A stretch of DNA of 64,000 nucleotides from an uncultured delta proteobacterium (GTDB lineage: Bacteria; Myxococcota_A; Polyangia; Palsa-1104). A program made the position numbers and the translations under genes. Positions 13,948 to 29,977 of the stretch are shown one piece after another. The notes under the pieces were generated by a model. That model saw nothing but the letters and a program-made list of their open reading frames with translations. It had not been told where the DNA came from and searched no databases. The DNA lies in the NCBI GenBank assembly GCA_963785725.1, contig CAWAWS010000039.1, positions 288,001 through 352,000 of the forward strand. Direction: 5' to 3'. Positions within the stretch are counted from its first letter, which is position 1, and each line of letters starts with the position of its first letter.

Positions 13948-14049
13948 GAGGCCCACAGTGTAGCACGAGGATTCGCGATAGCCGCGCCCGCGCAGCGGCG
14001 ACGGCGGGAGGCGGCGGCGCACTGCGCGGCGGGGGCGCGGCAGCTCGCG

Positions 14050-14600
14050 CAGCGGCGGAATGCGCGGCGGCGGAATGCCCGCCAGGCCGCGCGGCGGCGG
14101 AATGCCCGCCAGGCCGCGCGGATTGCCCGAGAGCTCGCGCAGCGGCGGTTTGCGCCCTGACGAGTTGCGCGGCAGCAAGTCGAGCGGCGGCAGCAATAAG
14201 CCGCGCCAGGCCGTCCGGTCGCGCGCTGGGGGCGGCGATGAGTTGCGCGGCGGCAAGTCGAGCGGCGGCCGCGACGAGTCGTGTACCGACGAATTGCAGG
14301 GCAGCGAGTCGAGCGGCGGCCGGGATGAGTCGTGTGCTGACGAGCTGCGCAGCAGCGAGTCGAGCGGCGGCCGCAACGAGTCGTGTGCTGACGAGCTGCG
14401 CAGCAGCGAGTCGAGCGGCGGCAGCAACGAGTCGCGCCAGGCCGACGGGCTGCGTGCCGGAGGCGAGTCGCGCCGGCCGGACGAATTGGGTCGCGAAGGC
14501 AAGTCGAGTCGGGTGGACGAGTTGGGTCGCGAAGGCGAACTGCCTGGCAGCGGCGAACTGCCTGGCAGCGGCGAATTGTCGCACGTCGGCAGCGGCTAGC
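14050..14600. repeat. Composite tandem-repeat tract (27, 51 and 18 bp units), probably non-coding
   Basis: 51-bp units at 14277, 14328, 14379 (GAGTCGTGTGCTGACGAGCTGCGCAGCAGCGAGTCGAGCGGCGGC...); GGAATGCCCGCCAGGCCGCGCGG x2; GGCGAACTGCCTGGCAGC x2. Confidence 0.85.
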
Positions 14601-14930
14601 GTCGCGGTGGCACCTCGCGCGACTCGGATTGCGAGGCCAACCAAACGCACGTCCGCCACGAGTGGCACGGCAGAGGCAACACATTGTTGGGCTGCGCTTG
14701 TCGCAGCATCGGCACGTCGCGCAGCCAGCGCGGCGACCTTGAAACGGTCCGGTTGCGCTGCGGTGATCACAGGCGCCGAAATCGCAAAATGGCTAAGCAT
14801 TCGTGCGCCGCCCGCGGCGTATTCTCCCGCGACCCGCCGCTCGGCCGCGCGCCCGTCACCGCAGATTCGCCCGCCTCGCCCATCGATCTCGTCCCCCGTC
14901 TGCTGGCGCTCGCGAACGCCCCAACGAGCG

Positions 14931-16481
14931 CTACTTCGCGTCGTCGGACTTCCCCTTACGCCGCTTACTCGACGCTTTTCCGCCCGTTTTCGTCGATCGA
15001 CCGCCATCAACAGGCGGCTCGCCTGTGCCGATGCCACCCGTGCTTTTCGCGCCTACGCCGCTCTCTGCGCTGCTCGCGCGGTTACCGCCGTCCGAGCTGA
15101 TGACCCCACGGCCGTCGTCACCCTCGACAGCGGTGCTATCTGCGGCGGCGTCACTCCCGCCTGCCGCTCGACCATTGTCGGGCGCTCCGACGGACACCCC
15201 TCGTTTGGCGCCGCCGTTCCCGACCGAGCCGCCACCGTGCTCGGCTGAGCCGCCGGCACGCTGCCCGACCGAGCCGCCACCGTTCCCGGCTGAGCCGCCG
15301 CCGCCGTTCCCGACGGAGCCGCCGCTGTTTCGGCCCGACCCGCTGCCGCCGTCTCCGCCGCGGCCGCGCGAATCCTGCTGCAGCCGAATGTCGAGCGCGC
15401 CCACGTTGTCGCCGACAAACGGCCGCATCGCGCCCAACGCACGCAGTCCCAGCCGTTGCACATCCACCGTGCGGTAGATGCGATCGTCGAAGGCACCCAC
15501 TGCGATCATCGCCAGCGGCAGCGAGAAGAAGAACATCGCCACCGCGACGAACGCCAACAGCTTGTGCCGACTCACGCCCGCCGACGCCACGCGCCCCTGA
15601 TCCGTCAGCTCGAAGCGCAGCCCCAGCTGTTTACGCTCGATCTGCGAGCGCATGTAGATTCGCGTACGCCGTTTTTGCGCGGCCTCGAGCTGCCGCTCCA
15701 GCTTCGGCATGCCTTGCTCGAGGTCGATCGCTTGCACGAGCAGCTGCGCTGTCTCCGCCGTCGACTTGGCGCTCGCGCGCAGGAACTGCTTGGCGACGAG
15801 CGCCGCTTGCGCCTTCTCGAGCACCGCTTTGGCGTCGGCCACTTCGTCGTCGGCGGCAATGAGCGCGCTGTCGGCTTCGTCCTGGCGCGAGGTCGCTTCC
15901 GCCTCGGTGACGAGCGCGCCCAAGTCGCGCACGACGTCGTAAACCTGGCGCGGATCGTGGCCTTGATAGCTGATGGCGACGCGCGCTTCACGGCCGTCGG
16001 GTCCGGCGGCGCCTTCGATGAAGTAATTGCGCCAGACCTCGATGTTCAGATCGTCGCGCATCTCTTCGACGGCGAGCGACGGATCGCGCTTGGTCAGGCC
16101 GGGATAGAGGCCACGCGCGCGGATGACCGAGAGTAGGCGCGACGTCGAAAAGCAGATGTCGGCGACATATTCGCGCAGGCGGCCGTTGGGCGACGGCCCC
16201 GTCGCCGGATCGACGTCCCCTTCGACGACACGAAAGGCGATGCGCGACTCGAACACTTGCTGTTTGCGCGCGCGATAGCCGACAACGGTCGCGGTCGCGA
16301 GCAGCGTCAAGGCGAGCGTCAGCCACGGCCGCGCGGCCGCGCGCAGGAGGAGTCGGCGCAGCTCGTCGAGAACGCCGCCGGACGCGCGCTCGTCGGCATC
16401 CCAGCCGTGCGGCGCGCTCGCGGCCAATGGTTTAACCACCGGCCGCGGCGGATGCGGCCGGTTCGCGCGCGGCTCAATCAT
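14931..16481 (-). CDS. Second polysaccharide co-polymerase-like protein with Gly-rich C-terminal extension
   Basis: Paralogous motifs (AVEEMRDDLNI, AFDDRIYRTVDVQRLGL); tail built from about 21-bp GGGS-type repeats; start at MIEP (16481) inferred. Confidence 0.75.
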   Translation of the reverse strand: MIEPRANRPHPPRPVVKPLAASAPHGWDADERASGGVLDELRRLLLRAAARPWLTLALTLLATATVVGYRARKQQVFESRIAFRVVEGDVDPATGPSPNGRLREYVADICFSTSRLLSVIRARGLYPGLTKRDPSLAVEEMRDDLNIEVWRNYFIEGAAGPDGREARVAISYQGHDPRQVYDVVRDLGALVTEAEATSRQDEADSALIAADDEVADAKAVLEKAQAALVAKQFLRASAKSTAETAQLLVQAIDLEQGMPKLERQLEAAQKRRTRIYMRSQIERKQLGLRFELTDQGRVASAGVSRHKLLAFVAVAMFFFSLPLAMIAVGAFDDRIYRTVDVQRLGLRALGAMRPFVGDNVGALDIRLQQDSRGRGGDGGSGSGRNSGGSVGNGGGGSAGNGGGSVGQRAGGSAEHGGGSVGNGGAKRGVSVGAPDNGRAAGGSDAAADSTAVEGDDGRGVISSDGGNRASSAESGVGAKSTGGIGTGEPPVDGGRSTKTGGKASSKRRKGKSDDAK

Positions 16482-17282
16482 GTGGCCCCTCGTGGCGGCG
16501 GGCTCGCGCTGCGGCGCGGGAATCGCGGGGCAGGCTCGGCTGCAATGGTTTAACCATTGCCCGCCGCCAATCGCGCCCGCCAAATAGCCGATCGCGATTC
16601 TGGATCGAGCGCGCAAAGCGAGCATCGGCCGGGAGTCCGGCCGCGGGGAGGCTCAACTGGCTTAGCCAGTCGAGGCGCGCTTGCGCCCTGTCGATCGATG
16701 CTGAATCAGCGTCGATCCTGCGCTGGCGAAGGCAGTGCAGGATCGTGCGCGCTGATTTAGACGCGTGGTCCGACCCGCCCGCGCGCGCCGCGACTTCGGC
16801 GTGTCCGGCACGTGAGGCGCGCGCCTCACGTAAGGCTCGGTCCAACTGTGCCGCGCGCGCCTCACGCGGAACGCCCGCGGCCAAGGGTTTAACCATTGGC
16901 CGCAACGACGCCGAACGAGCCGTGCGTCGCGCACCCATCGCCGATCGAGCGCGTTTGGCGCGCGCCGGGCGGTGAGTGTCGGGCAGCCGCTGCATGCGCA
17001 ATGGTTCAACCATTACCCGCGGCGACTGCGCACCCGCAGTGCGCGGCGCAACCAATCGACGTTCGACGGTGCTGGGCGCTGCCGCGAGATCGATGTCGGG
17101 CAGGCGCTGCGGCAGGATTGGTTTAACCATTGTCCACAGCGACCGCGCACTGGCATTGGGCAGCGCAAGTTTCCGACGTTCGACGGCGATCGGCGCGTGC
17201 TGCGAAACCAATGTCTGCCGACCGGTTCGCACACAAGGGTTTAACCATCGCCTGCAGCGACGGCGCGCGAGCCCCTCGATGC

Positions 17283-19364
17283 TTAGCCATGTGGCCCTCC
17301 GCAGCGCGCGCGCCAGGCGTCGTACAGCCGGCCGCGCGCCGCTTCCCAGGCCGCCGGATCTTCAGGCCACGCCGCCGCGCCGGCGCCCTCGTCGAGCGCG
17401 CGCGGCACGAGCTCCCGCAGCAGTGCGGCCGCGACATCCGCCGCGCCGCACTGCTCGAGCGCGCGCAACAGCAAGCGGTCCTGCAGCCCGCGTCGCAGCG
17501 TCTTCAGGCGCAACGAAGGCCACGGCCCGTCGACCGCCGCCGCCTCGGCCGACGCGCGCACCGTCTGCGCTTGCGCTGCGTGCGCCGGCTCGGCGTCGTT
17601 CGACCGCACTTTGGACGGCGCGCCCGACCGGTCCGACGACGCGCTCGGATTGGTCACACCTATCGATGACTTCGGGTCCGTCGCAGCGGCCACCGACGAA
17701 GACGTGTCGCCCGGGGCTTGTGGGGACGCGCCCTGCGGCGGCGGATAGAAGAGCACGCCGTCGCCGTTGCCCCAGTCGGGATTGCGCAGGCGCTTGCGCC
17801 GCTGGTCATACGTGAGCGGATCGGTGAGCACGTCAGTCGGTCCGCCGCCATTATACCGGTCGGCGAAGTAAGTGCCTTCCCAGGCGTACCAAAGCTCGAC
17901 GCCATAACGCGCGGCGATCCAACCCCAAGTCCGCAGCGACGGGCCGGCGGCGTCGATGACCATACTGCCCGCGGCCGGCGGCGTGCCGTTGTAGGTCCAG
18001 CGATGCGGCGGTCGCGACGCCGGCCCGATGAAGACGTCGATCGCGTCGCCGAAATCGCGATTGGGCGGCGCCGTCACCGCGCGCAACAGCTTGTCGTGCC
18101 GTCCGATACGCTCGCCGGCGGCGCGTGCCGACGCGCGTTCAGCCGCCGAATGCGGCTCGTCGATCGGAATCGTAAACGCCGTCTGCGCCCGCGTCGCGAA
18201 TTGGTTTAACCATTGCTGGACGTCGTGCTGCGCGCTCGCCACCGTCGAGAGATCGATCTCGACCGGCCAATAGCGCGTCCCCCGCATGAGTGCTTGCCGC
18301 GCGACAAATCGGTCGAGCGGCAGATCGGACGCGAGGTAGGCGCCGTGCGCACGGGCCAACGCGTGGTAGCGCTCTTCGAGCGGCAGGAGCGCGCGATCGT
18401 CGTCGGGCAGGCCGTGCGCGCGCGCGATCTCGGCCGGCATGTACCAGATCCAGACGAGCGGCTCCTCGTCGACGGCGACCTGCACCGCCTCGACGGTAAG
18501 CTCGACGGGAAACGTGCGCGTGCCGACGATGAGCGTGCCGCGATGCAGGCCCGGCGCGGCGTCGGCGGCGATGGCGACGTCGAACAGCGCGTCCCCGGTC
18601 ACAGGCTGCGACGAAGGACGCAGCGGATCGGGGTAAACGCCGGCGCCGCGACTCGGCCCATACATGGTCGTCGACGGTTCGCGGAGGTTCAACCATTGCA
18701 CGGCGAACGCGTCGACGTGCACCGCCGCGACATCGACCGCGCGGCCGGTCGGCGATTGCATCGGCGATACGGACGCTCGCTGCGTCGGTGCCGCCGCCTT
18801 CATCAACGGCTGCTGCGTGGGCGGCGACGCCCGTGTCGACCACGGCGCCTCGGTCGTTGGTGCGGTTGACGCCGCGCGTGTCGACGTTCGCGGCGACGCC
18901 GGTTTCGCGAACGGCGCTTCGGTCCCGGGCGTGGTTGACGCTGCCCTCGGCAACGTTCGCGGCGTCGACGTGCCCGCGTTCTGCGCTGCGGATGACGGTC
19001 CGTTCGGGGGCCGCGCGGCTGGTTGCGATTGCGGCGCCTCGCTCGTCGAAGGGGTGGGCGGCGGCTCGGTCGCAAACGTCAGCGAGCTCGCGGCGTCGTG
19101 CGTGCGCGTCAGGACCTGCAGCGCCAGCGTCTCGCCGCGACCGCCGCGCAATCGCACGCGCGTCCCGTCGAACAGTGGCGACGTCGCGGGCAGCGGCTCG
19201 TCGCGACGTAATCGCGTGTCCTCGGTCACGATCGCCAGCTCGGCGCCGCCCGCGGCGCGCGCGTCGGCGGTGCGGCCGTCGTCGCGAGGTTGCGCCGTGC
19301 GCGCATCACGCCGGCCGCAGCCGCTCAGCGCGACGAACGCAGCGACGACGAGAATGCGCGTCAT
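17283..19364 (-). CDS. Lipoprotein with C-terminal DUF4091 (glycoside hydrolase-associated) domain and low-complexity insertions
   Basis: Lipobox LSGC; NGDGVLFYP...PSLRLKTLRRGLQD; Pro/Ala/Thr/Ser-rich inserts at about 18740-19080 and 17550-17740. Confidence 0.75.
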   Translation of the reverse strand: MTRILVVAAFVALSGCGRRDARTAQPRDDGRTADARAAGGAELAIVTEDTRLRRDEPLPATSPLFDGTRVRLRGGRGETLALQVLTRTHDAASSLTFATEPPPTPSTSEAPQSQPAARPPNGPSSAAQNAGTSTPRTLPRAASTTPGTEAPFAKPASPRTSTRAASTAPTTEAPWSTRASPPTQQPLMKAAAPTQRASVSPMQSPTGRAVDVAAVHVDAFAVQWLNLREPSTTMYGPSRGAGVYPDPLRPSSQPVTGDALFDVAIAADAAPGLHRGTLIVGTRTFPVELTVEAVQVAVDEEPLVWIWYMPAEIARAHGLPDDDRALLPLEERYHALARAHGAYLASDLPLDRFVARQALMRGTRYWPVEIDLSTVASAQHDVQQWLNQFATRAQTAFTIPIDEPHSAAERASARAAGERIGRHDKLLRAVTAPPNRDFGDAIDVFIGPASRPPHRWTYNGTPPAAGSMVIDAAGPSLRTWGWIAARYGVELWYAWEGTYFADRYNGGGPTDVLTDPLTYDQRRKRLRNPDWGNGDGVLFYPPPQGASPQAPGDTSSSVAAATDPKSSIGVTNPSASSDRSGAPSKVRSNDAEPAHAAQAQTVRASAEAAAVDGPWPSLRLKTLRRGLQDRLLLRALEQCGAADVAAALLRELVPRALDEGAGAAAWPEDPAAWEAARGRLYDAWRARCGGPHG

Positions 19365-19400
19365 CGCGCGACAGCTCCAAGTGACCTAGACCGTGAGACC

Positions 19401-19610
19401 GAGTCGCGAATCTGCGAGGCCGACAGTGATGTCGACCAGTCGCGCGTCTGCGAGGCCGACAGTGATGCCGACCAGTCGCGAATCTGCGAGGCCGATAGTG
19501 ATGCCGACGAGTCGCGACTTCGCGCGGCCCACATCGATGCGGGCGAGTCGCGATTTTGCGAGCCCAACATCGATGCCGATGAGTCGCGATCCTGCGGGGC
19601 CAATAGCAGC
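19401..19610. repeat. Intergenic 36-bp tandem repeat, about six degenerate copies
   Basis: Units at 19401, 19437, 19473, 19509, 19545, 19581: (G/C)AGTCGCGAATCTGCGAGGCCGACAGTGATGCCGAC. Confidence 0.85.
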
Positions 19611-19748
19611 GTTGACGCCGACGTCGACACTGAATGCGCATGCGAGTGTGACTGCGATGCGGACGCCGATGCCCATGGCCATGTTCGCTCGCTCGAATCG
19701 TCATTCCGACGACGGCTACAGGACCGGACGCGCCAACTGTGGCTGCTG

Positions 19749-20921
19749 CTAGCGATACGCACGGACCGCGTCCTCGAGCACGGCGTGCAGCCGCGCCGCG
19801 CTCTCCGCCCAGCCGCCGCGCGCGCCAATCGCGGCCACCTCGCTCGCGTCGTAATCGATCGCGACCTGCCGCTCCAGCGCGGCCGCCAGCGACGGTGCGT
19901 TCATTGGTTCAACCATTTCGCCCAACGCCGGCGAGGTCATGACATCGGGAATGCCGCCGACGCGCGTCGCGACCGCGCGCCGACCGCAGGCGAACGCCTC
20001 GAGCAGCACATTCGGCGTCCCTTCGTTCCAGCTCGGCAGCACGAAGAGGTCGCACGCCGCCAGCCAGCGCGGCACTTCCGCGAGCGGCCGCGCGCCGACG
20101 AGCTGCGCCTGCGGGCCGATGCGCGCCGCCATCGCCGCGCACTCCGCCCGCGCCGCGCCGTCGCCGACGAGCACGAGCGAGAGGTCGGGATGACGCGGCG
20201 CCAGCGTGGCAAAGGCGTCGAGCAGCTCGATGAGCCCCTTATCGCGCACGAGCCGACCGACGTAGACGATGACACGACCTTCCGGCGGCAGACCCAACTC
20301 GACGCGCGCTTGCCGGCGATCGCGCGGCTGAAACAGCGTAGCGTCGACGCCGTTGGCCACGATGGCGATGCGATCGCGCGCTACGCCCAGCGTCGCCAGC
20401 GAATCGGCGAGCGGTCGCGAAACGGCGACGGCACGCGTCGCCCGCGGCAAGAGCGCGCGCAGCTGCCGCCGCACCGACGGCAGCTTGGCGACGATATTGA
20501 CGTCCGATCCGTGCACCTTCACCACCGACGGCAGCCGCAGCGCCTCCGCCAGCATCACCGTGGCCGCACCGTCGGGATAGGCCCACGCGCCGAGCAGCAC
20601 ATCAGCCCGCCGGCGCCGCCACGCCGCTCCCAACAGCGACGCCGCGTACAGCGCCGCCGACGCGCCCGGCAGCTTGGGCGCCATCAAGTAGCGCGGGTGC
20701 GAAATGGTTAAACCATTGACGCTCTCCGTCGCTGGCACGGCCGCCAAACGACCGGCCGCGCTCCACTTGCGGAACATCCCGGCGCCCGGAAACCAGGGAA
20801 TGACCCCCAGCACCTCGACGTCGCAGAGCTTGCCGAGCGCGGTGAACTGCTGCTGATTGAAGGGCGACCAGAGCGGCTCGACCGGATTGGGAAACAGCCG
20901 CGTGAGGACGACGACGCGCAT
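19749..20921 (-). CDS. Glycosyltransferase family 4 (TuaC-like)
   Basis: AWAYPDG, KVHGSDVN, NGVD, PSWNEGTPNVLLEA (EX7E). Confidence 0.92.
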   Translation of the reverse strand: MRVVVLTRLFPNPVEPLWSPFNQQQFTALGKLCDVEVLGVIPWFPGAGMFRKWSAAGRLAAVPATESVNGLTISHPRYLMAPKLPGASAALYAASLLGAAWRRRRADVLLGAWAYPDGAATVMLAEALRLPSVVKVHGSDVNIVAKLPSVRRQLRALLPRATRAVAVSRPLADSLATLGVARDRIAIVANGVDATLFQPRDRRQARVELGLPPEGRVIVYVGRLVRDKGLIELLDAFATLAPRHPDLSLVLVGDGAARAECAAMAARIGPQAQLVGARPLAEVPRWLAACDLFVLPSWNEGTPNVLLEAFACGRRAVATRVGGIPDVMTSPALGEMVEPMNAPSLAAALERQVAIDYDASEVAAIGARGGWAESAARLHAVLEDAVRAYR

Positions 20922-20962
20922 TCGTCCATCGATCTTACACGACGGGGCATTACACTCTCGAC

Positions 20963-21613
20963 ATGCTCAGCCTCTATCTGGTTCGCCACGGCCAGACCGA
21001 CTATTCGGCGCACAATCGTTTTTGCGGCAGCGTAGATCCGCCGCTCAACGACGTCGGGCACGCCATGGCCGAGGCGCTCGGCAAGCGCTACGGCGCCGGC
21101 CCTACGCCGGGTGAGCGCTGGAACGCGATTTACGCCAGCCAAATGCTGCGCGCGCGTCAGACCGCCGAGCCGACGGCGCGCGGCGCAGGAATTGGTTTAA
21201 CCATTGACGATGGTCTGCGCGAGATCGCCTATGGTGAGTGGGAGGGCCGGCCCGAGGCTGATGTCCAGCGCGACGATCCCGGGCGTTTCGCGGCCTGGGC
21301 GGCGCATCCCGGTCGTATCGCGCCGCCGGGCGGCGAGAGCGGTTACGCCATCGCCGCGCGCGCCATCGCCGCCGTCGAGCGCATCCGCGCCGCGCACAAA
21401 GACGGCAAGGTTCTCGTCGTCTCGCACAAAGCGACGCTTCGCGTGCTCGTCTGCGCGCTGATGGGCGTCGACGTCGATCTCTTCCGCACGCGCATCGCGC
21501 AGAAGACGTGCGCCGTGTCGATCATCGACTTCAAGCCCACGGGTCCGCTGCTGCAGGTGCTCGGCGACACCAGCCATTTGCCGCCCGAGCTTCTCGCGGG
21601 CGACGGCACCTGA
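20963..21613 (+). CDS. Histidine phosphatase (phosphoglycerate mutase family)
   Basis: LVRHGQT, RARQTA, LREIAYGEWEG, VVSH. Confidence 0.92.
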   Translation: MLSLYLVRHGQTDYSAHNRFCGSVDPPLNDVGHAMAEALGKRYGAGPTPGERWNAIYASQMLRARQTAEPTARGAGIGLTIDDGLREIAYGEWEGRPEADVQRDDPGRFAAWAAHPGRIAPPGGESGYAIAARAIAAVERIRAAHKDGKVLVVSHKATLRVLVCALMGVDVDLFRTRIAQKTCAVSIIDFKPTGPLLQVLGDTSHLPPELLAGDGT

Positions 21614-21636
21614 ACGCCGCGCACGACAGCGCGCGA

Positions 21637-22973
21637 ATGGTTGAGCCAATCGCCAAGCCGCGCCTGACACTGATTCCGCTCGTCGCCGCCACCTACTTCA
21701 TGGTGTCGGGCGGCCCGTACGGGCTCGAGGAGATCGTGGCCGGCGCCGGTTATCGCGGCGCGATCATCATCCTGCTCGTGACCCCGCTCGTGTGGTCGTT
21801 GCCGACGACGCTGATGGTCGGCGAGCTGGCCGCCGCGCTGCCCGAGGAGGGTGGCTATTACGCGTGGGTCAAGCGCGCGCTCGGTCGCTTCTGGGGTTTT
21901 CAAGAGGCGTGGCTCTCGCTCGTCGCCAGCATCTTCGACATGGCGATCTACCCGACGCTGTTCACGCTCTATCTCGGCCACTTGTGGCCCGCGCTCGCGG
22001 TCGGCCACCGCCCGCTCGTCGCCGGCGCGCTCATGATCTTCGTCTGTGGCGCCTGGAACCTGCGCGACGTGCGCGCCATCGGCTGGAGCGCCGTGGCGTT
22101 GACGGTAGCGCTCTTGGCGCCGTTCGCCGTGCTCGCCGCCAGCGCTTGGCTCGCGCCGACGGCCGCTCTTGCTCCGTCGCTCGCGTCGACGGCGTCGGCA
22201 AGCGGTGCCGCTCCGCCGTCGCTGGCGTCGGCGGGATTGTGGAGCGGCGTCCTCGTCGCCATGTGGAACTACATGGGCTGGGACAACGCCTCCACCGTCG
22301 CCGGCGAAGTCCACCGCCCGCAGCGAACCTACCCGCTGGCGATGCTGCTCGCCGTCGCCTTGGTCGCGCTCACCTACGTCATCCCCGTCGCTGCCGTCGC
22401 CCACGTCGACCTCGATCCGCGCGATTGGTCGACGGGTGGCTGGGTCGACGTCGCCCGCACCATCGGTGGCCCCTGGCTCGGCCGCGCCATCGCCGTCGGC
22501 GGCGTCCTGTGCGGCATCGGCATGTTCAACGCGCTCATCCTTTCTTACTCGCGCGTTCCCGTCGCCCTCGCCGAAGACGGCTTCTTGCCGCGCCAGTTCG
22601 CGCAGCGTTTGCCGTCGGGCGCGCCCTGGCTCGCCGTCGTCACCTGCTGCGTCGCCTACACGGCCTGCCTGGAAATTGGCTTCGTGCGCCTCATCGAGCT
22701 CGACGTGCTCGTCTACGGCCTCAGCCTGCTGCTCGAGTTCGTGTCGCTGGTCGCGCTGCGCATTCGCGAGCCGAAATTGGTTAAACCATTTCGCGTCCCC
22801 GGTGGCGTCATCGGCGCAGCGCTGTTGGGCGTGCCGCCGATGGCGCTCATCGTCGTGGCGCTAGTCAGCGGTTGTCACGAGCAAGCGGGCCGCTTGCCGA
22901 CGCTGGCTCTCGGCGCCATCCTGGTAGGAGCGGGCCCGTTGGTGTATTGGATTGGCGTTCGAAGGAGAAGCTG

Positions 22974-22974
<1 letters not shown>
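21637..22974 (+). CDS. APC-family amino acid/polyamine permease
   Basis: FMVSGGPYGLE, LPEEGGYYAWV, MWNYMGWDNAST; ATG at 21637 (MVEPIAK) inferred. Confidence 0.9.
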
Positions 22975-23248
<274 letters not shown>

Positions 23249-23249
<1 letters not shown>

Positions 23250-25114
23250 TGCGCGCGGCTGGTGACATCTTGCTCGTCTCGACGTACGAGCTTGGTCACC
23301 AGCCGCTGCACCTTGCGTCGCCGCTGGCGTTCCTCGAGCGCGATGGCTATCGGCCGCGCGCGGTCGATGTCTCCGTCGAGCCGCTCGACGACGAGGCGAT
23401 CCGGCGGGCGCGCTTCGTCGCCGTCGCCGTTCCGATGCACACGGCGCTGCGGTTGGGCGCGGAGGTGGGGGCGCGCGTCAAGGCGCTGAATCCGACGGCG
23501 CACCTCTGCTACTTCGGTCTCTACGCGCCGCTCAATCGTGAATATTTGCGGCAGCACGGCGCAGACTCGGTTCTCGGCGGCGAGTACGAAGCGGCGTTGG
23601 TCGCGGTCGTCCGCGCGGCGGAATTGGTTAAACCAATTGCCGTGCTCGTCGCAGCCGTTGCGGCCGCGTTGCCCGTAGCGCCGGAGCCGGCCCACGCGAG
23701 CGAAATCGGCGCCGCTGAATTGGTCAAACCAATTTCAGCATTGGTTGAACCAATTCCGGGACGAGCGGGCGCGGCTCCACCGATTGCAGCGAGCGAAATC
23801 GGTGCGGCAGAATTGGTTAAACCAATTGTCGCAATGGTTGAACCAATTCCAACGGCGCGTGTCAGCTCAGGTCCGCCGATTCCAGGGGGCGAAAGCGGCG
23901 CGGCAGAATTGGTTAAACCACTCGCCGGCGAACGAACGACGGCGGTCCGCTCGGCAGCTACAGGCACGGTCGGCGGGATTGAGCTGGGCGAGCCCTGTGC
24001 TGCCGGACGATCGGACGATGCGGGCTCGGCCGAGAAGGCCGCCGACCGTCCAGGCGAATTGGTTAAACCAATTTCGGAAATGGTTGAACCAATCGTGCTC
24101 GAGCGGTTGGACTTTCCCGTGCCGTCGCGAGCGCGGCTGCCGCTGCTGTCCCGATATGCGCGGCTCGAAGTCGACGGCGAGGCGCGGCTCGCGGGCTATG
24201 CCGAGGCGAGTCGCGGCTGCCTGCACCATTGTCGACATTGCCCGATTCCGCCCGTGTACGAAGGGCGCTTTTTCGTCGTTCCCATCGAGACGGTGGTCGC
24301 CGATGTCGCGCAGCAAGTGGCCGCCGGCGCTCGTCACGTCACGCTCGGCGACCCCGATTTCTTCAACGGGCCGGGCCACGCCATGGCGGTGGCGCGCGCG
24401 ATCCACGCCGCACATCCGTCGCTGACGTTCGATGTCACGATCAAGGTCGAGCACATCTTGCGGCGGCGGGCGCTGTTCGGTGAGCTGGCAACGCTCGGCT
24501 GTGCCTTCGTCGTTAGCGCCGTCGAGTCGACGTCAGACACGGTCTTGCGGCTGCTCGACAAGGGCCACACGCGCGCCGATCTCGACGAGGCGCTCGCCAT
24601 CCTCGACGCAGCCGGTCTGCCGCTGCGGCCGACGTGGTTGCCGTTCACGCCTTGGACGACGCTCGACGACTACCTCGACATGCTCGATTGGATCGAGTCG
24701 CACGCGATGATCGATCACGTCGATCTCGTGCAGCTGGCGGTGCGGCTGCTGATTCCGCCGGGCTCGAAGCTGCTGTCGCTGCCGGAGATGCAAGCGGTGC
24801 TCGGTCCGCTCGAGCCCGAGAAGCTGAGCTACGCCTGGACGCATCCCGATCCGCGCATGGATCGGCTGGCGCACGACGTCTTCAGCGCCGTGGCCGAGGG
24901 GGCGCATTTTGCCGACGTGCGCGCGCTGGCGCGAGCGGCGGCGGCGCTGCCGCAGCTGTCGACGACGGCGATCGTGCACAAGCGCGTTCGCGGCCGGCCG
25001 CCGCGCCTGAGCGAATCCTGGTTCTGTTGAGCGGAACCCACAGCGAGCCAGTTCGGCGCGCTAAAGACTTCAGCCGTTGACCCGCTCCCGGAATTGGTTA
25101 AACCAATTCCGTAG
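23249..25114 (+). CDS. CUAEP-tail radical SAM selenoprotein (B12-binding-like N-domain + radical SAM; UGA 25028-25030 read as Sec)
   Basis: LVSTYELGHQP N-terminus, ASRGCLHHCRHC CxxxCxxC; after SESWFC-TGA the frame continues AEPTASQFG...ELVKPIP-TAG(25114). Confidence 0.85.
25042..25062 (+). promoter_or_regulatory. Putative bacterial SECIS hairpin
   Basis: AGCG-A-GCC[AGTTC]GGC-G-CGCT stem starting 11 nt after the UGA, with GU in the apical loop. Confidence 0.6.
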
Positions 25115-25190
25115 TGCGCTTAGTGCCCGTCGCGTGGGCCACATCTGCCCGACTCATTTTCGATCATCTCTGCGCCCGCAGATACATCGG

Positions 25191-25260
25191 GGCATCTTCA
25201 TGCACGATCAGCGTGCGAAGGATCAGGCATCTTCATTCACGATCAGCGTGGGAAGGCTCA
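25191..25260. repeat. 35-bp tandem duplication between convergent genes
   Basis: GGCATCTTCATGCACGATCAGCGTGCGAAGGATCA / GGCATCTTCATTCACGATCAGCGTGGGAAGGCTCA. Confidence 0.85.
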
Positions 25261-25369
25261 TTCACGAGGGTCGCTGCGATGGATCACGGCGCAAGGTCTG
25301 ACGGTGCTCGGCAGTTGGTCGAACTGGTCGGCTCGAGCGTAGGAATGGTTTAACCAATCCGATAAATGG

Positions 25370-26641
25370 TTAAACCAATTTTGGGAGCAGCGGGGTTATG
25401 TCGAGCTCGAGGTGGCGATGGGCCTGACGCAGCGCCGCTTCGACCTCTGCAGGCGTCTCGCCGCGCGCGAAAATGAAGCCGAGGTAGCTCGCGCCCTCGG
25501 GCAGGGGCACGAGGACTTCGCCCGGCCGCGCAGAGATGGTCACGTCTTCGATGAGCGGCACTCGGCGCGCTTCGTCGACGCTGCGAACCTCGGCCAAGAT
25601 GCCGCCGGACGGAATCGGAATCATCATGACGCCCGCCGCGCCCTGTCGCTCGAGCGCGCCCAGATCGTGCCCGAGCGCGGCGCGAATGACGATCTCCTCC
25701 AGCGAAGTCGCGCCCAAACCGAACCGCAACGTGCGCGCGCACAGGCCGCCGATCGAGCGCGCCGCCACCTCGATGACGACGGGGCCAGCCGGCGACAGCC
25801 GCAGCTCGGCGTGAATCGGACCGTTGGTTAAACCAATCGCGACTGCCGCCTGCGCGGCCTCCGTCTCGATCGCGCGCTGCAACGATGGCGCGTGGCGCGA
25901 CGGCGTCACATAGATCGTCTCCTCGAAGAAGGGGCCGTCGAGCGGATCGGGTTTGTCGAACAGCGCCAGCGTTGTCAGCTCACCGTCGCGCAAGATCCCT
26001 TCCAGCGCCACCTCGGCGCCAGGCACGAAATCCTCGACGAGGATACGCTGCCCGTCCGGATCTTCGACCGCGCGCAAGGCCGGCGTCTGCAGCAGCGCGC
26101 GCAACCGCCGCCACGCGACGACGAGCTCGGCCGCCGAGTTGGCGCGCATGACGCCGCGGCTCCCCGAGCACAGCAGCGGCTTGATGACGACAGGCCAGCG
26201 ATTGGTTAAACCATTGGCGACCACGTCGGGCGAATCCTGCGCGTCGAAGACGGCGCTGGCCGGGTTGGCGACGCCCGCCCGCGACAACGCCGCGCGCATG
26301 AGCCGCTTGTTGCGCGCCGTGGCGGCCGCGCCGACGGAGTTGCCGCGCAGACCCAGTCGTGCCGCGGCGCGCGCCGCGATATCGGCTGTCGGCTCGTCGG
26401 TGGCGATGATGGCGTCGAATGGTTTAACCATTGCCTCGCGCACGATCGCGTCCGTCGTTTCCTCTTCGTGGCGGAACTCGAGCGGCAGCGATCCGCCGAA
26501 CGCAGCGCGAGGCCAAATCTCGGCCAGCTCGTGGCAACGATTGGTACCGAGCACCGCTTCGACCCCGACGCGGTCGGCGGCGCGCAGGAAATCGTCACCC
26601 CGGTAGGAAGTGGTCGACGACAGAACGAGGACTCGACCCAT
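25370..26641 (-). CDS. ATP-grasp domain protein (L-amino-acid ligase-like)
   Basis: RNKRLMR, PVVIKP..SGSRGV, LVEDFVPGAE, HAELR, VIEVAARSIGG. Confidence 0.9.
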   Translation of the reverse strand: MGRVLVLSSTTSYRGDDFLRAADRVGVEAVLGTNRCHELAEIWPRAAFGGSLPLEFRHEEETTDAIVREAMVKPFDAIIATDEPTADIAARAAARLGLRGNSVGAAATARNKRLMRAALSRAGVANPASAVFDAQDSPDVVANGLTNRWPVVIKPLLCSGSRGVMRANSAAELVVAWRRLRALLQTPALRAVEDPDGQRILVEDFVPGAEVALEGILRDGELTTLALFDKPDPLDGPFFEETIYVTPSRHAPSLQRAIETEAAQAAVAIGLTNGPIHAELRLSPAGPVVIEVAARSIGGLCARTLRFGLGATSLEEIVIRAALGHDLGALERQGAAGVMMIPIPSGGILAEVRSVDEARRVPLIEDVTISARPGEVLVPLPEGASYLGFIFARGETPAEVEAALRQAHRHLELDITPLLPKLV

Positions 26642-26674
26642 GGATTATCGCCAATAATGTGATAACAGATCCGC

Positions 26675-27415
26675 GTGCTGTCCATCGTCGTTGCCATTCT
26701 GTCGGGTGTCTTCGTCGGCGCGCTGTTCCGATTGACCCACCTCGTCCACTCGTTCGCCGGGACCATCCTGCCCGGCGTGCTGGCGACGATCGTGGCGGCG
26801 ATCTTCCTGTTCCGGCGCGTCAGTGCATTGGTCAATCCAGTCGTCGAGGAGGCGCAGCGGCATCTGAAGGGCGGCCGCGCCGAGCTGGCGCTGAAGTCGC
26901 TGCGCGACGCGCTGCGTTTCGGCCGCTGGCACCCGATGCTGGAGCCGCAATTGCGTACACAAATCGGCCTGTTGCTCTATCAGCAGGGCGATATGGACGC
27001 GGCCATCACCGAGCTCGAGCGCGGCGCGTCGCGGCCCTGGGAATCGCCGGCGTTTTTGGGCTGCGCGTACTACAAGAAGCGCGACGACGCGAAGATGACC
27101 GCGGCGTTCGAGAAGGCCGTCAAAGCGGGCGAAAAAGAGGGCCTGTGCTGGACGGTCTACGCTTGGTGTCTGGCGTCGCGGAGCAAGAAGGCGGAAGCGA
27201 CCGCGGTGTTGAAGCGCGCCATCGCGAAGCTGCCGGCGGACGAGCGGTTGCAGGGCAACTTGGAGCTCGTCGAGGCAGGCAAGAAGATGAAGGTCGTGCC
27301 CTACGGTGACCGCTGGGCGCATTTTGGGCTCGACGGCGCCAAGCCCGGCGTGCCGAAGGCGATGCGCGGCTTCGCGCAGCGCCCGGGTTTCCGTCAGCGC
27401 CCGACGCGACGGTAG
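26675..27415 (+). CDS. Membrane-anchored TPR-like hypothetical protein
   Basis: Two N-terminal TM helices followed by helical TPR-like repeats. Confidence 0.7.
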   Translation: MLSIVVAILSGVFVGALFRLTHLVHSFAGTILPGVLATIVAAIFLFRRVSALVNPVVEEAQRHLKGGRAELALKSLRDALRFGRWHPMLEPQLRTQIGLLLYQQGDMDAAITELERGASRPWESPAFLGCAYYKKRDDAKMTAAFEKAVKAGEKEGLCWTVYAWCLASRSKKAEATAVLKRAIAKLPADERLQGNLELVEAGKKMKVVPYGDRWAHFGLDGAKPGVPKAMRGFAQRPGFRQRPTRR

Positions 27416-27958
27416 CTCCGTTCGTTTCGTAGCCGCGCATTTCGTCGACGCCTCAGCCTTCGACGGGATGCCGAACGATGCCTGGCCGCTTACGCGTCGA
27501 CAGGGTTTGACCCGGCAAGCCTGCTTGCCGATTGGTTAAACCAATTTGCTGAGCGGCTGGCGGCGAGCGCCGTCCAGCAGCCAACCTGCCCTGAATTCGT
27601 ACGCCGGCCCAATCCGCGCATGGATAATGGTTAAACCAATTCTAGTTGGACTCGGCTGCATGCCGCGAGCCGCGCGCTCCACGTTTGAATAATTGGTTAA
27701 ACCAATATCGGTGGATTCGGGTGCGTGACCGGACCGCTGCGCGTGTTCGTACGAGTAAACTGGGTAACCATTCGACAGTGAAGCTGGACGTCGACCGGCT
27801 CCGCGTTCGCTACCGAATGGGCGATGAATCCTTGCGGCGACGCTGCCCGCGTACGCGTGGAGAATTGGTTTAACCATTCTCGCCGAGTCGAAGCCGTCTC
27901 GTTTATGCGCGGACGCGGAGAGTTGGTTTAGCCAATGGATGGCGACGTCGGCCGCTGC

Positions 27959-29977
27959 TTACGCCGTGCCGAGTGCGCTCCAGAGCGGCGCCGTCCGGCG
28001 TGTCACCAGGCCGAGCTCCTGCATCAGGGCGTAGACCTTGGCCAGCGAATCGAGTGTCACGCGGCGATAGGCGCGATTGTTCGTGAACGCCTCGGCGACG
28101 ACGGACGCGGGAATGTCGAACTCCCGGATCAGCGCTGGCGGCGGTCGTAGCATCAGCTCGGCCGTGATGCGGAGAATGACGGGGGCCGTTGCCGCCAGCG
28201 CCATCCGTTTTAACGGATGCAAGCGCGGCACATACTCGCGCAGGAAGCTGCGCGCGAAGCATAGGTGGCGCGCCTCCTCGGTGACGTGGATTTGCGAGAT
28301 CCTCCGCAATAACGGATGGAGGTTGGGCTGGCCTGAAAGCGCCAGGCGCTGCGCGTGATCGATGGGATCTTCGCCGCCAAGCACGAACACGAAGAACAGC
28401 TCGGGAAAGCGCGCGGCCAAGCCGGCGACGCGCGTGCCCAGCCAGGCGAGCCGCGGCGTGAGGCCGCTGATGTCGAAGCGGCTGCGGCGGACGAACTCGG
28501 AGAACATCATCGAGTGGTGCGATTCCTCGATGAGCTCGTGATAGGCGTAGCGATGCTCGGGTGACTGCTCGGAGCGCGAGAGGATGAACAGCAAGAGGCC
28601 GCGGCTGAGGACGTTTTCGAACTGCACGCCGACCTTCATGAACGTCGCGACGCGATAGAGGCCGATGCGCGCGCGTTCCGCCGGCGGCTTGGCGCGGTAC
28701 CACGCGGTACCACCGAGCGGATCGTCGGGGCCGAGCTCCCAGCGCGAGTCGTCGTCGCGGACGGCGAAGTCGGGCGCGTCCCAGTCGATGTCGCGGAAGG
28801 CTTCGTAGCGTTTGCTGACCGATTGTCGCGACAGGCGCATCAACAGGGCGTCGTAGGCCTCGCGCGGTGCGCGGTGCTCTTCGTCGGCGACCGTGGGATC
28901 GGCAACGGATGGAGTGGTGGCGGAGTCGCGGGCCGAATCTCGAGCGACGGCCGGGTGACGCTCGTTCGGCGCGGCGGCGACGGACGCATCGCGCGGACCC
29001 GCAGATGACGCGGCGGCGACGGACGCATCGCGCGGAGCCGCAGATGGCGCGGCGACGACCGACGCATCGCGCGGAGCCGCAGATGACGAGGCGGCGACGG
29101 ACGCATCGCGCGGAGCCGCAAATAACGTGGCATCGACCGACGTATCCCGCCGAGCCGGCGATGGCGTGGTGTCGACCGACGTATCTCGCCGAGCCGCAGA
29201 TGACGTGGCGTCGGCCGGCGTGTCTCGCCGAGCTGGAGATGTTGCTGTGGCGACGGACGTGTCCCGCCGAGCCGCAGGTGACGTGGCATCAACCGACGCA
29301 TCCCGCGGACCCGCAGACGACGCGGCGTTGACGGACGTATCCCGAGCCGCCGATGGCGCTGTGTGAACAGGCGCATCCCGGCGAGTTGCAGACGGCGTGG
29401 CGTGAACGGCCTTCCTATGGGTTGCGGCAGCGACGGACGTATCGTGAGGTGTCGCAGCTGGACCGGCGGCGAGGTGCATATCGCGAATGGCAGTGGCGGA
29501 CGGCGCGTCGACGCGCATATCGCGATGAGTTGCGGATAACGGCGCATCGACGTGCACATCGCGACGAGTCGCAGATTGCGCGGAGTCGAAGGACGCATCG
29601 CGAGTGGCCACGGAAGAGGGGGCGTCGAGATGTGTATCGCGAGTGGCCGCGGAAGAGGGGGCGTCGAGATGTGTATCGGGAGTGGCCGCGGAAGAGGGGG
29701 CGTCGAGATGTGTATCGCGAGTGGCCGCGGAAGAGGGGGCGTCGAGATGTGTATCGCGAGTGGCCGCGGAAGACGGGGCGTCGACGTCTGTATCGCGAGT
29801 GGCCGCGGAACCCGGAGCGCTGACGGCAGCCGCGGCCGCGGATTCGGCCTCGGTGGCGGCTGCCGTGCCGTCGCCGGCGCCAGCGCGCCCGGCCGTGCCC
29901 GGCGCGCCATCGGCGGGCAGGTCGCGCATCGCCGCGGAAGACTCGTCGTTGCCGGTACGATCGACGGGGAGCTTCAT
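27959..29977 (-). CDS. AurF-like diiron oxygenase with long repetitive N-terminal extension
   Basis: IEESHHSMMF, GEDPID, HVTEEARHLCFA; ATG 29977 overlaps the TetR stop (ATGA) and follows a GGAGGT RBS. Confidence 0.85.
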   Translation of the reverse strand: MKLPVDRTGNDESSAAMRDLPADGAPGTAGRAGAGDGTAAATEAESAAAAAVSAPGSAATRDTDVDAPSSAATRDTHLDAPSSAATRDTHLDAPSSAATPDTHLDAPSSAATRDTHLDAPSSVATRDASFDSAQSATRRDVHVDAPLSATHRDMRVDAPSATAIRDMHLAAGPAATPHDTSVAAATHRKAVHATPSATRRDAPVHTAPSAARDTSVNAASSAGPRDASVDATSPAARRDTSVATATSPARRDTPADATSSAARRDTSVDTTPSPARRDTSVDATLFAAPRDASVAASSSAAPRDASVVAAPSAAPRDASVAAASSAGPRDASVAAAPNERHPAVARDSARDSATTPSVADPTVADEEHRAPREAYDALLMRLSRQSVSKRYEAFRDIDWDAPDFAVRDDDSRWELGPDDPLGGTAWYRAKPPAERARIGLYRVATFMKVGVQFENVLSRGLLLFILSRSEQSPEHRYAYHELIEESHHSMMFSEFVRRSRFDISGLTPRLAWLGTRVAGLAARFPELFFVFVLGGEDPIDHAQRLALSGQPNLHPLLRRISQIHVTEEARHLCFARSFLREYVPRLHPLKRMALAATAPVILRITAELMLRPPPALIREFDIPASVVAEAFTNNRAYRRVTLDSLAKVYALMQELGLVTRRTAPLWSALGTA
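28970..29810 (-). repeat. 39-bp (13 aa) coding tandem repeat, about 20 degenerate copies
   Basis: PSSAATRDTHLDA / SSAAPRDASVAAA-type units; near-identical copies at about 29600-29800. Confidence 0.9.

Follow-up and report, generated by a model that had tools for sequence, protein, structure and literature searches.

The window, i.e., the 64,000-nucleotide stretch of DNA from an uncultured member of the Polyangia that was analysed, carries a gene for a CUAEP-tail radical SAM protein (23249–25030, forward strand), which encodes 593 residues up to an in-frame TGA and matches the NF040546 and PF04055 profiles. The domain order of the protein is a B12-binding-like N-terminal domain, an insert and the radical SAM domain. 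Its score of 643 bits with the NF040546 profile, against a curated cut-off of 500, places it in this family, and the match is split in two (model positions 1–120 and 132–467) with the insert in between. The CxxxCxxC motif of the radical SAM cluster (C324, C328 and C331; 24218–24241, forward strand) is intact and invariant in the alignment, and the C-(U/C)-A-E-P tail of the family is present as a predicted selenocysteine TGA followed by a read-through tail that begins C-U-A-E-P (25028–25114, forward strand). The genome contains SelB, above the cut-off, as well as tRNA-Sec; the hairpin that follows the TGA, examined as a possible SECIS element, is no more stable than those of shuffled sequences (z=-0.83). 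A model obtained with AlphaFold2 from a 14-sequence alignment showed both domains with high confidence, and a pLDDT below 50 for 135 residues, mostly within 165–281. The family is described as functionally uncharacterised in the available part of its source (bioRxiv 10.1101/2022.07.06.499078). The genes for YggX, the radical SAM protein and an ATP-grasp protein (22974–26641) are also neighbours in three relatives (G002, G003 and G004), which is a possible clue to the function of the family.

The insert (23615–24091, forward strand; approximately residues 123–281) is rich in Ala, Pro, Glu, Val and Gly, is predicted to be mostly disordered, and is formed by five units that hold eight sites of a 15-bp palindrome, AWTGGTTNAACCAWT in the genome-wide logo. 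Site 1 (23623–23637) belongs to unit 1; sites 2 and 3 (23719–23754) and sites 4 and 5 (23812–23847) are tandem pairs, 21 bp apart, in units 2 and 3; site 6 (23908–23922) belongs to unit 4; and sites 7 and 8 (24058–24093) are the pair of unit 5, which abuts the catalytic domain in the same way as the pair in the two-site linker of the closest homologues. In units 1 and 4, the second site has decayed (best match 6/14), which leaves 8 of the 10 potential sites. All eight palindromes listed in a preliminary description of the window were recovered at their reported positions. Seven of them contain the exact core TGGTTNAACCA, the copy at 23721 having one mismatch, and the 15-mers match 13–14 of the 14 informative positions; under a second-order Markov model, approximately one exact core per genome, or 5e-5 per 471 nt, is expected by chance. 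The codons used in the motif are rare (GTT, 2.6% of Val; CCA, 2.3% of Pro). The repeat period of 93–96 bp given in the same description holds for the first three unit spacings (96, 93 and 96 bp) and not for the last one (150 bp), and a common 5′ flank is found in units 2–4 only; its view that the motif is conserved while the intervening sequence has diverged agrees with 13–15 of 15 positions being alike between units in the sites versus 4–13 of 30 in the 3′ flanks.

An assembly artefact was ruled out by three overlapping contigs of run X1, which cover 23560–24129 with 89–93% identity (19, 18 and 15 differences), and by a 165-nt contig of run X2 that bridges the 5′ junction of the insert with zero differences; each of these contigs covers a part of the insert, and they may derive from more than one strain. 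The contigs of the RNA run X7 cover 22941–23209 only, outside the insert. At the other end of the protein, a ninth site (25093–25107) lies at the end of the predicted selenocysteine tail, where it encodes ELVKPIP inside a hairpin with a 10-bp stem.

History of the linker and level of constraint

The CUAEP- and CCAEP-tail radical SAM (seleno)proteins have the same domains, cluster motif and CU-AEP tail as the window protein, and differ from it in the linker. From 120 listed homologues, 101 could be measured (19 have no anchor); the span from GGEYE to RGC is 59–78 residues in 100 of these 101, as the preliminary description had anticipated, and 212 residues in the window protein. From these values, the insert amounts to 153 residues over the site-free congeners, whose linker has approximately 10 residues, and to 145 over the nearest relatives; the insertion is thus in frame as first described, and the original estimate of about 160 residues was slightly high. 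That description had also singled out array-free homologues that keep an ELVKPI-repeat linker in different codons as the observation that would speak against its proposal. Thirteen site-free orthologues from relatives (12 from genomes without a site around the radical SAM gene, plus the partial one of G001) have short linkers and no ELVKPI peptide.

Seven database homologues, known from their protein sequence, do have ELVKPI-like linkers (P0002–P0005, P0035, P0040 and P0043). The closest to the window protein are P0002 and P0003, with approximately 90% identity, followed by P0004, P0005 and P0035 with 76–80%; these five show a 67-residue span with one motif-shaped pair 7 residues (21 bp) apart, e.g., ELVKPIAARVEPI. 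The variable residues of these linkers (K/E/Q and I/F/L/M) are almost only those allowed by the N and W positions of the motif, the exceptions being some degenerate second sites. A quick IQ-TREE phylogeny of 49 linker-free sequences grouped the window protein with P0002 and P0003 (SH-aLRT 100), within a seven-member clade (98) that carries the peptide in six of its members, while P0040 and P0043, which also have the peptide, are found in a separate clade. From the linkers and the tree, the order of events was from no site to one pair, and from one pair to five units. The gene offers a traceable case in which selection at the DNA level has overwritten and lengthened a protein, and each of the three stages is still extant in relatives.

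Comparison with the sister strain of run X1 revealed that 1 of 88 core positions differs, and this difference goes towards the consensus, versus 34 of 383 other positions of the insert (Fisher p=0.011). The spacers show 19 non-synonymous and 11 synonymous changes (pN/pS approximately 0.7), and the best-supported subset of differences in the folded domains (n=11) 10 synonymous and 1 non-synonymous, scored on the 36 differences of a list that omits those near contig ends and two more. Since the cores are kept while the spacers drift, the constraint falls on the DNA and not on the protein; together with the rare codons, this pattern indicates that the enzyme domains are constrained as protein, that the spacers are nearly free and that the cores are held at the DNA level. 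These results suggest that protein binding, rather than coding, is what the DNA has been shaped for. The earlier proposal that an interdomain linker served as neutral space for amplified DNA binding sites is therefore supported by the disorder of the linker, the pN/pS of its spacers and the conservation of its cores, the binding itself remaining putative.

It could be argued instead that the ELVKPI repeats have a function in the enzyme at the protein level, i.e., as spacer, docking or localisation repeats, considering that the frame is open over approximately 480 bp and that three short helices are predicted at the repeat starts of the insert. The same 15-mer, nevertheless, is found in intergenic DNA as well as in each of the three frames and on either strand; its synonymous positions are fixed on rare codons, the spacers drift as described, and such a peptide is absent from 93 of the 101 measured homologues. 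This explanation is already largely refuted and we consider it extremely unlikely. A role as RNA hairpins was also discarded, given that the site pairs fold only modestly (z of -1.6 and -2.2) and that the 21-bp spacing suits DNA better.

Domain A and the other site domains

The insert is part of domain A (16426–27936; C39:304–316 kb), which has 29 sites with a match of at least 12/14 in 11.5 kb. The genes across this domain encode a glycosyltransferase, a probable histidine phosphatase, an APC transporter, YggX, the radical SAM protein, the ATP-grasp protein and a TPR protein. One site pair (25344–25379) is located between the convergent 3′ ends of the radical SAM and ATP-grasp genes, and five sites (27531–27936) between the convergent TPR gene and a gene that ends at 27959. 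Several details of this region deserve mention: the site at 21636–21650 supplies the start codon of the APC transporter (MVEP), the site at 25367 overlaps a stop codon, a 35-bp direct repeat (two copies, 91%) lies at 25191–25260, in the gap where the radical SAM and ATP-grasp genes converge, and in one X1 contig 216 bp are missing from the stretch that separates the sites at 25117 and 25334.

In the complete genome, 136 of the 137 exact cores are found inside four domains of 12–35 kb; the other three are B (C7:356–389 kb), C (C7:421–436 kb) and D (C33:40–64 kb). When sites with a match of at least 12/14 are considered, there are 170 in 8.9 Mb and 7 of these are outside the domains. The dominant spacing between sites is 21 bp (36 pairs), and no other palindrome with 5-bp arms is clustered likewise in the genome. 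The insert had been proposed to be the densest part of the array; this is correct for the array of the window but not for the genome, as six sites occur in approximately 115 bp at C7:370,952–371,057.

Among 40 relatives, at least five strict sites were detected in G001–G004, G007, G010 and G012, and six other genomes have 1–3. Domains B, C and D appear as clusters of sites at the same genes in the congeners, and B and C also in G012, which belongs to another genus. The DNA syntenic to domain A has no sites in G001, G002, G003, G004 and G012; therefore, domain A is specific to the sub-lineage of the window, and domains can be founded anew. The sites within genes of domain A arose in register by substitution, e.g., EP[SA]LPRPFRV changed to EPKLVKPFRV in the transporter, and required up to 8 substitutions, with amino-acid changes. 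Their ancestral positions already matched the motif at 4.8–5.8 of 14 versus 3.1 for the background, in a set that includes repeats across frames and some misaligned inserts.

Metagenomic data provided 47 stretches with an exact double site, 41 of which were analysed after dropping six overlapping duplicates; most of them map to domain B. Double sites at L204, L216, L208 and L228 are beside genes outside all four domains of the window's genome (G000), and could represent further lineage-specific domains. In G012, the pairs on C148, C307 and C438 are 20 bp apart instead of 21, and domain C reaches further, towards the genes found at C7:436–454 kb of G000.

A candidate binder and the footprint of the domains

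Within domain B, C7:367,776–368,570 encodes a 265-residue wHTH-FCD protein, a GntR regulator of the FadR type, whose closest structures are Rv0494/FadR and PdhR. Orthologues with at least 50% identity are present in only 8 of the 41 genomes (G000–G004, G010, G011 and G012), and seven of these eight have at least five strict sites; G011 (86% complete) has an orthologue, cut by the end of a contig, and no sites, and G007 (51% complete) has sites and no orthologue was found in it. The FadR-type gene has a site pair across its TTGAC promoter and its ATG in 20 of 22 loci, which include some duplicates, one truncated locus and a distant one, and the second site of this pair usually spells the regulator start MVKP. 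At L003 (C7:368,559), where the site gives this start, the transcript is apparently leaderless. The promoter pair is the only one near the FadR-type gene in G010 and L224, which is likely the ancestral state, and at L207, from another taxon, a double site is located just upstream of an unrelated FadR-like gene. The consensus operator of the FadR subfamily is given, in the available part of PMC4494728, as TKGT and ACMA boxes 3 nt apart, and our logo is likewise an A/T-rich palindrome with TKGT/ACMA and 3 nt between GT and AC. From the fit to the consensus, the pair at the regulator's own promoter, the co-occurrence of gene and sites, and the double site of L207, it is likely, on sequence grounds, that the motif is the operator of the protein encoded at C7:367.8 kb. 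A second GntR paralogue (C19:148 kb) is an unlikely binder because weak matches like it are found in the majority of genomes of the order, also in site-free ones. The close FadR-type orthologues all end in a Lys/Arg-rich tail, missing from the distant L114 protein, that could add non-specific DNA binding. Judging from N-terminal sequences, the neighbouring region (C7:352.9–362.8 kb) looks like a cluster for tryptophan or aryl-CoA breakdown, a candidate for the ancestral regulon.

The classic autorepressor layout at the promoter of the FadR-type gene, and the presence of an FCD effector domain besides the wHTH in the regulator, would fit a dense transcriptional regulon, in which this one protein would repress the genes of every domain, with the intragenic sites, the array of the insert included, as auxiliary operators or as roadblocks for RNA polymerase. 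Promoter placement, as expected of FadR operators, is partly seen in domain B of the congeners, where 12 of 22 and 14 of 24 sites are at 5′ ends versus 16–18% expected; this proportion, approximately one half, favours a regulatory origin. It is not seen in domain A: called 5′ ends hold 3 of its 29 sites (11% expected by area), and 7 fall between convergent genes. The gene calls treat inserts as intergenic, which inflates the class of other intergenic sites for G000. A sigma-70 scan of 16000–28500 detected no promoter and is uninformative in this GC-rich genome. Moreover, eight sites are in the middle of a gene, the genes of domain A have unrelated functions with no common pathway and are site-free in five relatives, and there are almost no sites in the rest of the genome. 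A regulon of this kind is therefore considered unlikely.

Another aspect of the domains is their mutational footprint. Tandem repeats free of the motif, detected with TRF, account for 7.6% of the domain DNA versus 1.3% outside, a sixfold difference (46 arrays in 96 kb of domains, and 476 in 8.8 Mb outside). Such tracts are found at the left edge of domain A (14042–15325) and, with a 39-bp unit, at its right edge (28969–29810); several of the tracts within these two regions and 19397–19590 are in frame within genes. The GC content at four-fold sites, computed with the motif codons masked, is 0.89–0.90 in the genes of domain A versus 0.95–0.98 in their orthologues (p of 1e-5 or lower) and 0.94–0.96 outside; the amino-acid divergence of these genes is ordinary, with a relative rate of 0.9–1.3. 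Orthologous intervals are mostly 1.1–1.5 times longer in the domains than in the congeners, and approximately 1.0 outside, although these ratios rest on few intervals and two comparisons go in the opposite direction (0.84 for A versus G012, and 0.72 for C versus G003). Neither the repeat excess nor the gain in length was observed in the domains of the congeners, and therefore the footprint is specific to the lineage of the window. The amplification of the linker is thus one among many local duplications, and stands out only because a site pair was caught in it; a local duplication hot spot may have produced it as a by-product, selection having acted afterwards on the retention of the sites.

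The excess of motif-free repeats would also be expected from a neutral or selfish process, in which the bound protein causes slippage and short-patch conversion that copy the motif locally, with no benefit for the cell. The decay of two of the ten linker sites is in line with this idea, as are the joints in run X1 that hint at other unit numbers, with sides of only 31–32 nt. Nevertheless, the cores are conserved relative to the spacers, single sites appeared in register in different genes, where the sequence was already nearer to the consensus than the background, and domains B, C and D persist across genera; hence we regard such a process as improbable.

A biased uptake or transfer of DNA, acting as a molecular drive that favours whole domains, was considered as well. 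According to the available part of PMC2817400, the uptake sequences of Pasteurellaceae (cf. Haemophilus) and Neisseria are short motifs that build up in coding DNA and bias the peptides at tolerant, poorly conserved positions, as the in-gene sites of domain A do. Unlike them, the sites described here are palindromes that come in pairs at 21 bp and have been multiplied by tandem duplication, and the genome-wide dispersal expected of an uptake sequence is not seen, since the motif is confined to approximately 1% of the genome. In addition, the candidate binder is of a cytoplasmic regulator type, and the GC content of silent sites falls, rather than rises, in the domains. Such a drive is thus very unlikely.

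Interpretation and comparison with known systems

The reading that we favour, with a probability slightly better than even (roughly 0.55), is that the insert is an amplified array of FadR-type operators, and that domain A is coated and probably looped by the C7-encoded regulator, as a structural unit instead of working as a set of promoter switches. According to this reading, dimers would bind the 21-bp pairs cooperatively, two helical turns apart and on the same face, and selection would favour the density of sites within the domain. The occupied DNA might be copied, repaired or recombined less cleanly, giving rise to tandem duplications and AT drift; one series of duplications could have caught the pair in the linker, and would have been tolerated, a disordered hinge being of little cost to the enzyme. 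A bolder version, which we put forward tentatively and as rather doubtful, is that a FadR-type repressor was co-opted as a chromosome-domain protein, and that the clouds of sites resemble a miniature bacterial centromeric heterochromatin: they would form de novo at loci that are unrelated, acquire sites by altering gene sequences, and suppress clean repair or recombination, leading to satellite-like repeats and AT drift and turning the hinge of an enzyme into a satellite array.

The positions of the domains were also compared with chromosomal landmarks. The parB gene is at C6:333 kb and dnaA at C19:114 kb, neither inside a domain, and two matches to the canonical parS motif are at C16:16 kb and C19:124 kb, outside the domains. 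A ParABS centromere was therefore rejected, as parB, dnaA and the parS matches are all on contigs other than those of the domains. In G002, domains B and D are approximately 1 Mb away from dnaA; consequently, no landmark explains where the domains are. A dif-like match is on C26, a contig without sites, in this assembly of 47 contigs, where the GC-skew signal is too weak to place the domains relative to ori or ter.

The enzyme family and the type of operator were already known; the new elements are the history of a linker that passed through three steps within a single gene, the founding of a domain in one lineage, and a footprint measured against matched orthologues. New loci can thus give rise to operator-dense domains, and these leave a mutational footprint that can be measured. 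Should binding and looping be confirmed, this would be an undescribed way of marking regions of a bacterial chromosome, and the effect of protein occupancy on local mutation and duplication rates would become testable with matched domain-free orthologues. A literature search, with most subscription papers outside its reach, returned no description of domains of this kind.

Several known systems share part of these features. MatP/matS, SlmA/SBS, Noc/NBS and RacA/ram consist of sequence-specific binders, some with regulator folds, that mark chromosome regions through sites located in genes; those sites are spread over hundreds of kb and tied to ori or ter. In contrast, here there are approximately 1–2.6 sites per kb in short domains, and a new domain was founded in one lineage. 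The Rickettsia palindromic elements also bring palindromic DNA into the reading frame of protein-coding genes, at positions that tolerate it, but they are long mobile units inserted whole, whereas the 15-bp site arises here by substitution and local duplication, with unrelated flanks. A mobile palindromic element of the RPE or MITE type was accordingly discarded: there is no whole unit of constant length, and the neighbouring genes show in-register substitutions without indels. The 24 parS sites of Myxococcus xanthus ParABS (PMC3778016) are another example of many palindromic sites clustered in one chromosomal stretch; the motif is different, the candidate binder of our sites is not ParB, and the domains are away from parAB and dnaA. 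A precedent for looping is Atu1419 of Agrobacterium fabrum, a tetrameric FCD-type GntR protein that, in the available part of PMC7797058, bridges two palindromes and loops the DNA; that source describes few sites at three regulated genes, with loops of approximately 190 bp, and a similar oligomer of the Polyangia protein is hypothetical. Lastly, PdhR, LldR, GlcC and FadR, as described in the available part of PMC4494728, combine the wHTH and FCD domains, the TKGT/ACMA palindrome with its 3-nt gap and paired sites over their own promoter, as found here. The sites of this subfamily are reported there at promoters and divergons; unlike them, those of the window's genome number approximately 170, are gathered in four domains of 12–35 kb, fall in many cases within coding DNA or between convergent genes, and have expanded the linker of a protein.
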